DNA from: a virus
Lineage: Duplodnaviria; Heunggongvirae; Uroviricota; Caudoviricetes
DNA length: 64,000 bases
Direction: 5' to 3' (one strand)
Virus record (IMG/VR): IMGVR_UViG_3300028789_000005
Below, one piece after another: positions 1,106-28,845 of this stretch (its first letter is position 1; each line of letters starts with the position of its first letter). Under the pieces are notes generated by a model. The model had not been told where the DNA came from and did not search any database. It saw only the letters and a program-made list of their open reading frames with translations. A program made the position numbers and the translations under genes.

Positions 1106-1584
1106 GCGGTTATATCTCCTGGGACTTAAAGCAAGGAAGGGCCGCGAACCACGTTGTGCGGTCAGCAGCCCCTCTGGACGTCCGTCTACTTGCACTCTTC
1201 TTCAGAGCAGGCAGCTATTAGGTGTTCTTACTGGTCAACTCGTACTACTTATCGAGTGACACCCTGGTCGCTGCTAACCACGCTCAATGTCGTGCGGCCT
1301 CCGTAGAGTGCCGCCGATGTAACTGTTTCCGTTATGGGTGCCAATGGCATGCTCACTCTAAAGTAAGCTGAACGGTCGTCGTTACTCACGAGAACTTTGC
1401 CGCACTCACTGCGGCTGCCCTATCCGGAGAGCGCGGAGGAAGGGTGCTCGATAACCCCGAGTCCAGGACATGCACACTCAAAGAGTGTCTCTCAACAGTT
1501 TGGTCAAAGAACGTGAGTACATCTATCTGGGTAACGTGGTGGTCCAGCCTAGATGGCTCGATTGCCCATAGCTTCTGAGCAATA

Positions 1585-1648
1585 TGGTCGGTGAAGAAGG
1601 ATTTGAACCTCCGGCATCTAGCTCCCAAAGCTAGCGCGCCATTCACCG
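1585..1648 (-). tRNA. tRNA-Pro(UGG)-like element lacking a D-arm
   Basis: The reverse complement is CGGTGAA-TGGCGCG-CTAGC-TTTGGGA-GCTAG-ATGCC-GGAGG-TTCAAAT-CCTTC-TTCACCG-A-CCA. It has a 7-bp acceptor stem, a 5-bp anticodon stem with a 7-nt loop carrying UGG, a canonical T-arm, a discriminator and CCA. The 3' half closely resembles bacterial tRNA-Pro(UGG), but only 7 nt occupy the position of the roughly 17-nt D-arm. Confidence 0.45.
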
Positions 1649-17456: not shown

Positions 17457-18155
17457 ATGAAGCTAAGCGAAGCGATGATGTTGGGCAGCACGACGGTGAA
17501 GATGGTGGCGGGAGACTGGAACAGCTGCGTGCTGGGCGCGGCGTGCAATGCCATGGGAGTGGCGAAGCACAAAAGTTTGTACGAGACGATGATGGAATCA
17601 GGGTTCACTCTCGCCGACATGAAGATGGTGGATGGGAAGCCAGAAATCACGTTTAAGGGCTGCAAGGAACGCGAGGAGACCGTGAACCGCCGTCTCAAGG
17701 TGGTCGAACTTTGGCCGTGGCTCGCGCAGTGGATGAAGGCGTCGGAGGCTCCCGACTGGTTCCAGCAATGGTCGGTCAATATGAATATGGTTATCTCTCC
17801 AGTTACTACGGTGAAGGTCAGTACGATCATCGTAACGGCATTCGACTTCTTCATCTGCGAAGGAAAGATGACCCTGGAGCAGCTCGTGGATTGGGTGGCG
17901 TCGGTCGAGCCGTCCTGCGGCGAGTGCTGCGAGTACGAGTGCAAGTGCGGCAAGACGGAACTACTCGCCGTTGAGGACGAAGTGGCAATGCTGGAGCGCA
18001 TGGCGTCATTGGGCGCGCCGCTGGATCTGGATGACGATGAGGAAGACGATGAGGACGATGAGGAAGACGATGAGGACGATGAGGAAGACGATGAGGACGA
18101 TGAGGAAGACGAACTCGGCAGTGTGAAGCAGCGGAAGGGACGCATTCATGCCTAG
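17457..18155 (+). CDS. hypothetical protein with Cys cluster and poly-acidic C-terminal tail
   Basis: ORF track; CAAAGGAGAAATCACA upstream. Contains CGECCEYECKCGK, then DDDEEDDEDDEEDDEDDEEDDEDDEEDE. Confidence 0.55.
   Translation: MKLSEAMMLGSTTVKMVAGDWNSCVLGAACNAMGVAKHKSLYETMMESGFTLADMKMVDGKPEITFKGCKEREETVNRRLKVVELWPWLAQWMKASEAPDWFQQWSVNMNMVISPVTTVKVSTIIVTAFDFFICEGKMTLEQLVDWVASVEPSCGECCEYECKCGKTELLAVEDEVAMLERMASLGAPLDLDDDEEDDEDDEEDDEDDEEDDEDDEEDELGSVKQRKGRIHA
18034..18113. repeat. 21-bp tandem repeat (GATGAGGAAGACGATGAGGAC) x ~3.8 encoding the acidic tail
   Basis: Seen directly, inside the CDS 17457..18155. Confidence 0.6.
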
Positions 18156-25162: not shown

Positions 25163-25497
25163 CGCCCTACTGCATACTGTTGGCGAAGCCAAACGACTCT
25201 GACGAGATCATTCGTAAATTATACCATGGGCTGGCGCGGTACTGCCATCCGGATGCGCGGCGTGGAATGCCAGAGGCGTCGCAGGAGAAGTTGAACTTCC
25301 AGTGGCACCGCATCACCGAAGCGTACTCAGCCATCAAGACTGACGCGCTGCGTGCACAGTGGGCGGCGTCGCAGTTTCTGCTGTCAGGGCAGTGTGGCAA
25401 GTGCGCAGGCTCGGGCGTGGTCGGTACACGTATGTTCAAGGGCAAGATAACGGAGTGCAAGGATTGCAAGGGAGAGGGACGCACGCGTGATGGCTGA
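25153..25497 (+). CDS. DnaJ-like protein: J-domain (HPD) plus CxxCxGxG zinc finger
   Basis: ORF track. YCILLAKPNDSDEIIRKLYHGLARYCHPDARRG carries the HPD tripeptide of J-domains. C-terminal CGKCAGSGVV and CKDCKGEG are DnaJ zinc-finger repeats. Confidence 0.6.
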   Translation: MVVTPYCILLAKPNDSDEIIRKLYHGLARYCHPDARRGMPEASQEKLNFQWHRITEAYSAIKTDALRAQWAASQFLLSGQCGKCAGSGVVGTRMFKGKITECKDCKGEGRTRDG

Positions 25498-26617: not shown

Positions 26618-26635
26618 AAGATCAAGGAGAAAGAG

Positions 26636-27103
26636 ATGAGCACAACAACGAATGGAGAAGTTTGCTTTGGAGTACTGCTAAATGACGAGGCGGAGGAATT
26701 TGAGCTGCCTTGGATGGCGGCAGACGTTGACTGTGACGAAGAGGAGTGGTGGCTGAAGGTGAACGGCTACAAGCCGCCGTTTGAGCTCTTCACAGAAGAT
26801 GGCGACTACATCGGCGGTGTAGAGCCGCCGCGTGCGAAGGTGCGTGAGTACTACGCGCACAAAACCGCGTGGATGAAGCTGAACCCATTGCCGTTCGAAT
26901 TGGTTAATTACCGCAGCGGTGATTGCCCCATGTACATACTGGCCGTGCCTGGAACGGTGCAGACGGCCAATCGTGGATATCCGAAGGAGTTGACGCTGGA
27001 CACGCGCATCCGCCCACTGAGGCAGATAGTGCTGCGTGAATTTTGCAAGAAGTACAACCTACCCACTGAATTCAAGTGGTGGCTTACAAGCTACTGGGGC
27101 TGA
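26636..27103 (+). CDS. hypothetical acidic protein
   Basis: ORF track 26597..27103 trimmed to ATG 26636, with AAGGAGAAAGAG upstream. Confidence 0.45.
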   Translation: MSTTTNGEVCFGVLLNDEAEEFELPWMAADVDCDEEEWWLKVNGYKPPFELFTEDGDYIGGVEPPRAKVREYYAHKTAWMKLNPLPFELVNYRSGDCPMYILAVPGTVQTANRGYPKELTLDTRIRPLRQIVLREFCKKYNLPTEFKWWLTSYWG

Positions 27104-27104
27104 C

Positions 27105-27551
27105 ATGCAGACCTTCCTTCCCTACAAGTCGTTCGTCAAATCGGCCGCGTGCCTGGATAATAAGCGGTTGGGCAAGCAGCGCGTGGAAGCCTACCAGCTG
27201 CTGAACGCGCTGCTAGGCTTGACGCACAAGCCAGGATCCGCCGTGCGCAAAGGATGGACCAACCATCCGGCAGCGTTGATGTGGAAAGGCCATGAAGGCG
27301 TTTTGTACCAATACGCTTGCATTGTATGCGACGAGTGGAAGCGACGCGGATTCAAGAACGAGGCCATGGAGGCTAATCTTCTGCGGCTGTTCAACGTAGT
27401 CGCTGTGCGCTTGATAAAGACATCGACGAGTCCAACGTGGCTAGGTAGTAGGAAGTTCCATGCGTCGCATCGCAGCAATCTACTGCGGAAGGATGCAGCG
27501 TGGTATGGGAAGTTCAACTGGAAGGAGCCGGCAGACCTGGAGTACGTCTGA
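27105..27551 (+). CDS. possible pyrimidine-dimer DNA glycosylase-like (DenV/endonuclease V family) protein
   Basis: ORF track 27036..27551 trimmed to ATG 27105. The N-terminus MQTFLPYKSFVKSAACLDNKRLGKQRVEAYQLL resembles the T4 endonuclease V N-terminus ([25 protein letters not shown]). A PTWLG motif lies near the C-terminus. The similarity was judged by eye only. Confidence 0.35.
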   Translation: MQTFLPYKSFVKSAACLDNKRLGKQRVEAYQLLNALLGLTHKPGSAVRKGWTNHPAALMWKGHEGVLYQYACIVCDEWKRRGFKNEAMEANLLRLFNVVAVRLIKTSTSPTWLGSRKFHASHRSNLLRKDAAWYGKFNWKEPADLEYV

Positions 27552-27573
27552 CCGGTGCAGAAGGAGAAGTAGC

Positions 27574-28501
27574 ATGCCATTTGACGCAATGTACGACCAA
27601 GGAGTAGGTTTGAACCTGACGTCTAAGCCGCCTCTAGTAATACACCACAGTCCATGTCTTGACGGCTTCACCGCTGCGTGGGCCATGTGGCTGCAGTACC
27701 CTGACGCCGAGTTCGTGCCGGGCGTGTACGGACAGGCTCCTCCGGATTGCACCGATCGTGACGTGTACCTGTTGGACTTCAGCTACAAGCTGGAAGTCAT
27801 CGACGCCATGCAGCGTGTCGCCAAGAGCATCACCATCTTGGACCACCACAAGACGGCCGAGAAGGACCTGTCCAATCTCTGGTCGCTGAACGACTGCAAA
27901 GGGGGTCACGAACGTGACGTGCATCTTCGACATGACCAAGTCCGGCGCGCGGTTGGCATGGGAGTGGTTCCATCCGCACACCGAGGTTCCCATGCTGGTC
28001 AGGGCAGTGGAGGACCGCGACCTGTGGCGCTTTTCTCTCGCGTACACCAAAGAACTAAACGCCGTATTGTTCAGCTACGACTACGACTTCAAAATATGGG
28101 GTTCCTTATCGCGACAAATGGAGTCTATTCCTGGTCTTGCCAGCATGCTGGAGGCCGGTCGAGCCATCCTTCGCAAGCAGGACAAGGACGTTCGCGAGCT
28201 TATCGGCATGACGAAGATGCGTCGTAGCATCGGCGGAATCATGGTGCCGTGTGCCAACATGCCGTATACGCTGGCCTCGGATGCAGCGAACTTGATGGCG
28301 GAGGGTAAGCCATTCGCCGCCACGTACTACAGCGACAAGGACGGCTTTGCGGTGTTCAGCCTGCGCTCCAGGGAGGATGGCGCTGACGTCAGCGAGATAG
28401 CCAAGAAGTACGGCGGAGGAGGCCACAAGCATGCCGCTGGGTTCCGCATCGAGTTGGTGAATCACATGCTCGGGTTGTACGACTATGAGAGGACAAAATG
28501 A
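27574..28501 (+). pseudogene. DHH-family phosphoesterase (NrnA/RecJ-like, DHH + DHHA1) interrupted by a +1 frameshift in a G5 run at 27901-27905
   Basis: ORF-track ORFs 27460..28227 and 27914..28501 are consecutive halves of one DHH protein. The first frame carries IHHSPCLDGFTAA (motif I), VYLLDFSY, and ILDHH (the DHH motif). The second frame carries DMTKSGARLAWEWF and the DHHA1 motif GGGGHKHAAGF. Removing one G from AAAGGGGGT joins them into a 308-aa protein. AAGGAGAAGTAGC lies upstream of ATG 27574. Confidence 0.6.
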
Positions 28502-28845
28502 CGGAGATCAAGATTCTAAGCGCGCTGTTCGTATTGTTGTTCGGCCTGAACGTGTGGTTGCGCAGCCATCCAGTCAAGAAGCGGAATACAAGCATGAAGC
28601 TGATACCACTTCTGTTAGTAGTAGTTGGCTTGACCGGTTGCTCTTTGCGTCCAAGTCTGGACGTTCACCTTTATTGCGGAAAACACGATACATGGCAGGT
28701 CTGTGTGCGGTGCCCGGCAGGATTCAAGCCAAAGGTGCAATGGAGACCGCTTAACGGCGAAGTTGGCGACAACGTAGTTACGGCATTCACCGATGCGCAG
28801 GCCGCGCGGTGTGTCGTCGACTGGAAAAGCTTGGTGAAACGCTGA
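28498..28845 (+). CDS. membrane/lipoprotein-like protein (N-terminal TM helix, then a second hydrophobic segment with lipobox-like LTGC)
   Basis: ORF track; ATGA overlap. MTEIKILSALFVLLFGLNVWL and MKLIPLLLVVVGLTGCS are both in the same frame. Confidence 0.45.
   Translation: MTEIKILSALFVLLFGLNVWLRSHPVKKRNTSMKLIPLLLVVVGLTGCSLRPSLDVHLYCGKHDTWQVCVRCPAGFKPKVQWRPLNGEVGDNVVTAFTDAQAARCVVDWKSLVKR

Follow-up and report, generated by a model that had tools for sequence, protein, structure and literature searches.

Stand-alone DHH/DHHA1 phosphodiesterases such as the nanoRNases NrnA/NrnB, Rv2837c (CnpB), TM1595, the catalytic domain of GdpP and DhhP combine a DHH with a DHHA1 domain in ∼300 residues, and canonical DHH proteins exhibit a D-x-D signature at motif I. 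The DHH phosphodiesterases of phages have been predicted, though not proven, to counter cyclic-nucleotide immune signals (PMC7824862). Here we report on a gene for such a DHH/DHHA1 protein in an uncultivated phage of ∼100 kb (Caudoviricetes; IMG/VR record IMGVR_UViG_3300028789_000005), contigs of which reach ∼100–102 kb. The gene occupies positions 27574–28501 of a 64,000-nucleotide stretch of DNA, which was analysed at its full length and is referred to as ‘the window’; unless stated otherwise, all features described are located on its plus strand. In the window the gene is split into two open reading frames (ORFs) by one additional G in a short homopolymer, while an allele lacking this G encodes an intact protein of 308 residues. 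The additional base represents a genuine, heritable insertion (G4 to G5), and we consider it probable that the resulting allele, which is the dominant haplotype, is null or strongly hypomorphic, that is, a young pseudogene.

The split gene and the family of its product

An earlier note, prepared from the DNA sequence and a list of its ORFs, had taken the ORFs 27460..28227 and 27914..28501 for consecutive halves of a single DHH phosphoesterase gene. This assignment is confirmed by the repaired product, which matches the PHROGs profile phrog_4771 (‘DHH phosphoesterase’) unbroken across the junction (residues 16–294 versus profile positions 14–285 of 363; E 2.8e-98), so that the two ORFs belong to one gene. 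Translation starts at the ATG at 27574, located 7 nt downstream of the Shine-Dalgarno (SD) element GGAG (27563..27566), a type of ribosome-binding site that is also used by neighbouring genes; the upstream Pyr_excise-type gene stops at 27551. The N-terminal half (27574..27906; residues 1–110 and the first out-of-frame codon) is encoded in what we call frame A, and its protein reads MPFDAMYDQ...ITILDHHKTAEKDLSNLWSLNDCKGG, with stretches MPFDAMYDQGVGLNLTSKPPLVIHHSPCLDGFTAAW...DVYLLDFSYK...SITILDHHKTAEKDLSNLWSLNDCKGG. It harbours the motif I Asp, D30 (27661–63), D68 of motif II (27775–77), and D90-H91-H92 of motif III (27841–49). The C-terminal half is encoded in frame B, which is shifted by +1 relative to frame A and contains a 195-residue ORF starting with GTG (27914..28501); it comprises motif IV with D119 (27929–31), the helices that connect the domains, and DHHA1 itself, in which the GGGGH motif (28412–26) is found. 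These coordinates, read directly, bear out the division of the motifs between the two frames that had been proposed, with motifs I–III in the first frame and the DHHA1 motif in the +1 frame.

An in-frame TGA (27887..27889) sets the upstream bound for a transition into frame B, which is open from 27890 and ends with the TGA at 28499–28501; its translation from 27890 reads TTAKGVTNVTCIFDMTKSGARLAWEWF...KYGGGGHKHAAGFRIE..., and the stretch around motif IV is CIFDMTKSGARLAWEWF. The two frames can be joined solely within 27890 to ∼27913, an interval that holds AAAGGGGGT (27898–27906) and, within it, the G5 homopolymer (27901..27905) that comparison of contigs identifies as the site of the 1-bp insertion and that is G4 in the intact allele. 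The TGA that bounds frame B and the G4 contigs agree with the junction that had been placed at 27898–27906. Downstream of it, frame A continues with 106 nonsense codons and the TAG at 28225–28227 (27907..28227, the end of the listed ORF 27460..28227), and this out-of-frame tail overlaps the true C-terminal frame. Deletion of one G yields, as anticipated, a protein of 308 residues, which is identical residue for residue to the metagenomic protein P0124, with the N-terminal half accounting for residues 1–110 of the latter. This identity, together with the DNA of the G4 contigs, reveals that the split is real and not a chance juxtaposition of ORFs.

The intact protein could be modelled with AlphaFold2 at a mean predicted local distance difference test (pLDDT) score of 89.5 and a predicted template modelling (pTM) score of 0.83, and a Foldseek search of the PDB with this model returned DHH-family proteins for all of the top 42 matches (E down to 9e-12). 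These include mycobacterial NrnA (4ls9, E 9e-12), Rv2837c/CnpB and the pApA phosphodiesterase TM1595 of T. maritima as well as the catalytic domain of GdpP, Borrelia DhhP, PggH and Bacillus NrnA, while archaeal RecJ and family II pyrophosphatase rank lower in the list. The protein resembles the NrnA/GdpP group in that it (i) exhibits the DHH of motif III, acidic motifs II and IV, and GGGGH, and (ii) matches the group with a Foldseek probability of 1.0 and E-values from 9e-12 to 1e-9. However, the sequence identity to members of this group is as low as 13–17%, the template modelling (TM) scores are ∼0.4–0.5, the Pfam DHH family (PF01368) scores on the first half with 17.5–18 bits and thus below its gathering score of 28.1, and the gene is frameshifted in the window. 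The second half is recognized by Pfam DHHA1 (PF02272) with 33.4 bits, above the cut-off of 25.9. Sequence and modelled fold place the product among the stand-alone, NrnA/GdpP-like phosphodiesterases that consist of a DHH and a DHHA1 domain, and nanoRNA, pApA, cyclic oligonucleotides, pAp or single-stranded DNA are candidate substrates for its predicted activity; the name given to relatives by JGI is ‘oligoribonuclease NrnB/cAMP/cGMP phosphodiesterase’.

In an alignment of 45 homologues, H25, C28, D30, D68, D90-H91-H92, D147, D149, S262-L263-R264-S265 and G280-G281-G282-G283-H284 are invariant, and D119 of motif IV is nearly so. The frameshift divides this set such that D30, D68 and D90-H91-H92 are located upstream, and D119 and G280–H284 downstream of it. 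Motif I (27655–27663 for C28-L29-D30) has the form H-x-P-C-x-D-G, and Cys28 is found in all 45 homologues, unlike in NrnA, which has an Asp; from the sequences, Cys28 may represent an altered metal ligand, presumably equivalent to the canonical Asp.

The two alleles and their descent

Comparison with related phage genomes, which the earlier note had named as a way to check the frameshift, revealed that the relatives among the matches listed possess an intact gene and that near-identical contigs carry G4. Within the 90% protein cluster of P0003, a 195-residue protein with 100% identity to the C-terminal ORF, the split form is represented by P0003 (indexed in 36 JGI blocks), P0122 (44 Logan/ENA blocks) and P0126 (1 contig), and the intact form by P0124 (308 residues, on 7 other metagenome contigs, which were read) and P0125 (295 residues, 2 contigs). 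The split form is thus much commoner than the intact form in the indexed blocks, with the qualification that the G4/G5 state was read from assembled representative contigs, and that the assemblies of JGI, Logan and ENA are in part based on shared runs, so that the independent samples are fewer than the contig counts would imply. Among the individual contigs, G5 (AAAGGGGGTCAC) is present in L001, L002, L011, L012 and L014, and G4 (AAAGGGGTCAC) in L003–L010 and L013. When compared with the window, L003–L010 exhibit the 1-bp gap and 0–3 substitutions over 3.4–21 kb, and the mosaic contig L013 exhibits 10 substitutions; what has been sampled repeatedly is one near-clonal phage.

The length of the G-run is perfectly linked to a synonymous single-nucleotide polymorphism (SNP) located 6.3 kb away in a dCTP-deaminase/dUTPase-like gene (34202; GGA/GGG). 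This position is G in 4 of the 4 G4 contigs covering it (L008, L009, L010, L013) and A in 4 of the 4 G5 sequences covering it (the window, L011, L012, L014). At a second synonymous SNP, in a DnaJ-like gene (25176; ATA/ATC), all covering G4 contigs have C, as does L012 with its G5 run, and the other G5 sequences covering it (the window, L001 and L011) have A. Together with positions 27660, 28136 and 36621, position 25176 is devoid of homoplasy, and the haplotypes form a perfect phylogeny in which a root (25176C, G4, 34202G) would have given rise to G5 with 34202A, as represented by L012, and then, with 25176A, to the haplotype of the window. It follows that a single origin of G5 suffices. Judged by sequence comparison, the intact G4 allele is ancestral and G5 is a derived 1-bp insertion, since (i) the full-length family members among the matches listed are all single ORFs, (ii) the gene of the syntenic relative P0002 is intact, and (iii) the more divergent mosaic L013 likewise carries G4.

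Based on the evidence collected so far, the following scenario appears to be the probable one. On a single occasion, replication slippage would have added one G to the intact 308-residue gene of an ancestor and shifted the frame after residue 110, downstream of catalytic motif III and upstream of motif IV. If translated in the normal way, the G5 allele would then yield residues 1–110 followed by 106 nonsense residues, and this product, devoid of motif IV and of the entire DHHA1 substrate-binding domain, is expected to be catalytically dead. In the sampled metagenomes the G5 allele constitutes the dominant haplotype and the intact allele a surviving minority haplotype, and loss of the gene would have been neutral or advantageous.

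Several points weigh against this scenario. Despite the conservation of the gene in related phages, the broken allele predominates by far, and it is free of a second disabling mutation; dominance without a second lesion would also be expected if slippage retained the function, or if the enzyme operated in two pieces. Moreover, the divergence within the G5 clade (∼0.005–0.06%) provides too few substitutions for relaxed selection to be detected from the ratio of non-synonymous to synonymous substitution rates (dN/dS), and the allele counts, which are based on representative contigs from databases sharing runs, are non-independent and refer to contigs or blocks rather than to allele frequencies within samples. 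In favour of the scenario, the only further change seen in a G5 gene is F153C in P0126 (L014 372; window 28032), a non-synonymous substitution of a nearly invariant Phe. The ligase and PolA genes of the same contig likewise contain several non-synonymous substitutions, and the changes in L014 could reflect either relaxed constraint or noise of a low-coverage assembly.

Gene callers omit the N-terminal DHH fragment, and in its place frequently predict an ORF on the minus strand that is spurious; within the deposited gene calls for 17.5–38.5 kb this fragment constitutes the only coding gap (when the entire window was tiled greedily with ORFs, the outcome was unreliable at 55.6% G+C owing to spurious antisense ORFs). 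The JGI caller, for example, fills the gap with a 99-residue minus-strand ORF (window ∼27634–27933; L001 2721–3020), which is almost certainly spurious, and annotation pipelines mask the frameshift in this manner. Consistently, the frame A ORFs (255 residues from 27460 and 217 residues from 27574) had no exact match in the protein collection. Neither a gapped pattern placed across the G-run nor a 32-mer just downstream of it gave any match in viral_contigs and metagenome_contigs, collections that evidently do not contain these contigs.

Two further structural differences between the contigs were observed. In the mosaic L013 (JGI 3300031234; P0125), ∼1 kb of the window (26619–27624), comprising a 168-residue ORF, the T4 endoV-like Pyr_excise gene and ∼17 codons from the start of the DHH gene, is swapped for an unrelated segment of ∼380 nt (L013 128–506) that encodes a 126-residue ORF; the breakpoint of the mosaic thus falls within the 5′-terminal part of the DHH gene. 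Furthermore, a coding tandem repeat of 21 nt, GATGAGGAAGACGATGAGGAC (∼18033–18115; L011 150–200), which encodes an acidic D/E-rich tail, is 42 nt (two units) shorter in L011 (ENA ERZ27248783) than in the window and L008, and represents the sole length difference apart from that of the G-run.

Alternative readings of the G5 allele

The inserted base does not only break the frame, but also converts AAGGGGTC to AAGGGGGT (27899..27906), an SD-like element located 7 nt 5′ of the GTG at 27914 that could form 8 bp with the 3′ end of 16S rRNA, and its use as a ribosome-binding site would allow the G5 allele to yield a separate 195-residue fragment consisting of motif IV and DHHA1. One alternative reading is an enzyme that is split and restarted: the frame would be broken in a disordered surface loop, and the new strong, near-consensus SD AAGGGGGU would drive initiation at GTG 27914, such that the C-terminal 195 residues (strand 5 with motif IV, and DHHA1) either complement the N-terminal piece or act alone, e.g., as a nucleotide-binding protein without catalysis. 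The calculated stability of the SD:anti-SD duplex rises from −8.0 kcal/mol (G4) to −11.9 kcal/mol (G5), which ranks near the 1st percentile when compared with positions drawn at random from the window, and GTG serves as start codon in 11 of 41 neighbouring genes (27%). The shift is, moreover, located in the sole internal segment with pLDDT < 50 (residues 105–109), between helix 104–107 and strand 114–118, which carries motif IV, and the junction region is length-variable and rich in indels in the family alignment; the dominance of a broken allele without a second lesion is likewise in line with a split enzyme. However, by the same measure equally strong SD-like strings occur by chance at ∼1% of positions, and two chains would need to come together to form the catalytic centre (motifs I–III on one chain, motif IV and GGGH on the other), an arrangement for which no naturally split family member was found among the matches listed. 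An efficient two-piece enzyme is further disfavoured by the 106-residue nonsense tail with which the N-terminal piece is burdened and by the frame A ribosomes that traverse the putative initiation site. Hence, we regard a split enzyme as unlikely.

A related proposal, which we rate as rather improbable, is that the insertion is adaptive. Selection might have favoured either the SD-driven fragment of motif IV and DHHA1, as part of a two-piece enzyme or as a non-catalytic nucleotide binder, or the switching-off of a counter-defence enzyme. In the latter case, a predicted cyclic-nucleotide-degrading enzyme would have been lost where hosts sense the depletion of such nucleotides, as in decoy immunity of the Panoptes type (PMC12657218).

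A frameshift in a homopolymer may also be bypassed by the ribosome, and the earlier note had accordingly listed programmed +1 slippage among the possible causes. In a programmed or tolerated +1 shift, peptidyl-tRNA-Gly would move from GGG (27901–03) to GGG (27902–04), with GUC being read next. The sequence GGG_G (27901–27904) would permit perfect re-pairing and give rise to the junction peptide NDCKGVTNVTCIFDMTK (...NDCKGVTNVTC...) and to a product identical to P0124; among the Gly codons, GGG is used least (8.2 per 1000), and the allele is common in nature. As in prfB-type +1 frameshifting and in decoding of GGGG by sufD-type tRNA-Gly, the shift would be +1 with P-site re-pairing on GGG_G. 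Unlike in these systems, however, the 0-frame A-site codon is neither a stop nor rare (GGU, which with 15.8 per 1000 ranks second in frequency among the Gly codons), an SD-like element is absent 3–10 nt 5′ of the slip codon, and no tRNA reading Gly or quadruplet codons was detected in the window (not a single tRNA is predicted by ARAGORN, and the element recognized by Rfam has a UGG anticodon for Pro). Nor is the site conserved, as the gene is a single ORF in the relatives among the matches listed, in P0002 and in the unshifted allele that co-circulates. Furthermore, no stable downstream structure is apparent (the folding z-score of 27880–28010 versus shuffled sequences is 0.45), and in-frame GGG_G occurs 12 times in the 41 neighbouring genes, so that the motif is not avoided. 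Lacking both conservation and stimulatory elements, programmed slippage is very unlikely to be the cause; low-level spontaneous slippage at GGG_G may take place.

It is even harder to reconcile the data with reversible phase variation, in which the G-run would act as a contingency tract and its changes in length would turn the enzyme on and off at high frequency. Both lengths are indeed encountered in otherwise almost identical genomes, but the tract comprises only 4 or 5 Gs, and known contingency tracts usually comprise 7 or more. The perfect linkage with 34202 and the lack of homoplasy, moreover, point to one event rather than to recurrent switching, and this makes phase variation highly improbable.

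Indel errors classically arise in homopolymers, and since the evidence presented here stems from assemblies and not from raw reads, a sequencing or assembly error in the G-run, the first cause considered in the earlier note, has to be addressed as well. Identical G5 runs are present in contigs from JGI, Logan and ENA (k141/MEGAHIT-style) and from many samples, the same pipelines yield G4 in other samples, and over up to 20 kb no other homopolymer indel exists between the contigs, including at the other G/C runs of at least 5; further G5 runs in that span are located inside intact long genes (a 762-residue gene, ligase and PolA). Agreement across many samples and three pipelines, the absence of other homopolymer differences, the linkage with 34202 and the perfect phylogeny together exclude an artefact, which we thus rejected as extremely improbable. 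Of the three causes put forward in the earlier note, the genuine frameshift allele is hence the one that stands.

Two additional forms of slippage could be dismissed at once: −1 frameshifting yields the wrong frame, and known RNA-polymerase slippage tracts are far longer than G5, so that the run is too short for transcriptional slippage.

Genomic setting, significance and comparison with known polymorphisms

The DHH gene is part of a replication and nucleotide-metabolism module and has as neighbours genes for a pyrimidine-dimer glycosylase, ligase, NT5C, DCD/dUTPase and PolA, which would fit a role in nucleotide salvage or DNA processing just as well as one in countering immune signals. Megablast of 27400–28600 against the INPHARED phages gave no match, PolA is at most 37% identical to that of any deposited phage, and the DHH protein at most ∼43%; hence, the phage has no close cultured relative. 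The phages in which phrog_4771 is annotated (Vibrio anguillarum, Caulobacter phiCbK-like and Brevundimonas phages) possess intact single-ORF genes for DHH proteins that share ∼40–43% identity (tblastn) with the protein of the window. In the metagenomic protein search, which yielded 7787 matches at E <= 0.001, the full-length proteins among the matches listed comprise ∼270–345 residues. P0002, a 68% identical relative, has an intact gene on a 93.9-kb contig of GCA_015689235.1 and shares with the window the gene order DnaJ ... DHH ... DNA ligase ... DCD ... PolA.

Elsewhere in the window, the above-mentioned element recognized by Rfam (RF00005; 49.4 bits, E 1.5e-07) is located at 1588–1648 on the minus strand, where it overlaps the ORF 1386..1646(−). 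With a length of 61 nt, a wholly absent D-loop and the anticodon loop UUUGGGA, it may represent either a truncated tRNA or a tRNA-like element devoid of the D-arm.

For annotation, our findings imply that the two ORFs should be treated as one frameshifted DHH/DHHA1 pseudogene allele and not as two genes, and that the sequence should not be ‘corrected’. For population biology, they suggest that a loss-of-function allele of a conserved gene can be dominant in a wild phage population in which the intact allele is still present. If the DHH enzymes of phages are counter-defence phosphodiesterases, as predicted, the two alleles would furthermore constitute a natural on/off pair with which the cost and benefit of the enzyme could be tested. 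The evidence available so far marks the insertion as an event of an ordinary type that affects a known protein family, albeit with two curiosities, namely that the majority form is the broken allele of a conserved gene, and that the very same base creates a strong predicted internal ribosome-binding site.

The locus is best compared with the homopolymer-indel pseudogenes and loss-of-function polymorphisms encountered in virus populations. It shares with these the 1-bp expansion of a short G-tract, the apparent single origin, the segregation with linked SNPs and the accessory nature of the gene affected. It differs from the typical case in that the presumed null allele represents the majority haplotype, even though the gene is conserved in related phages.

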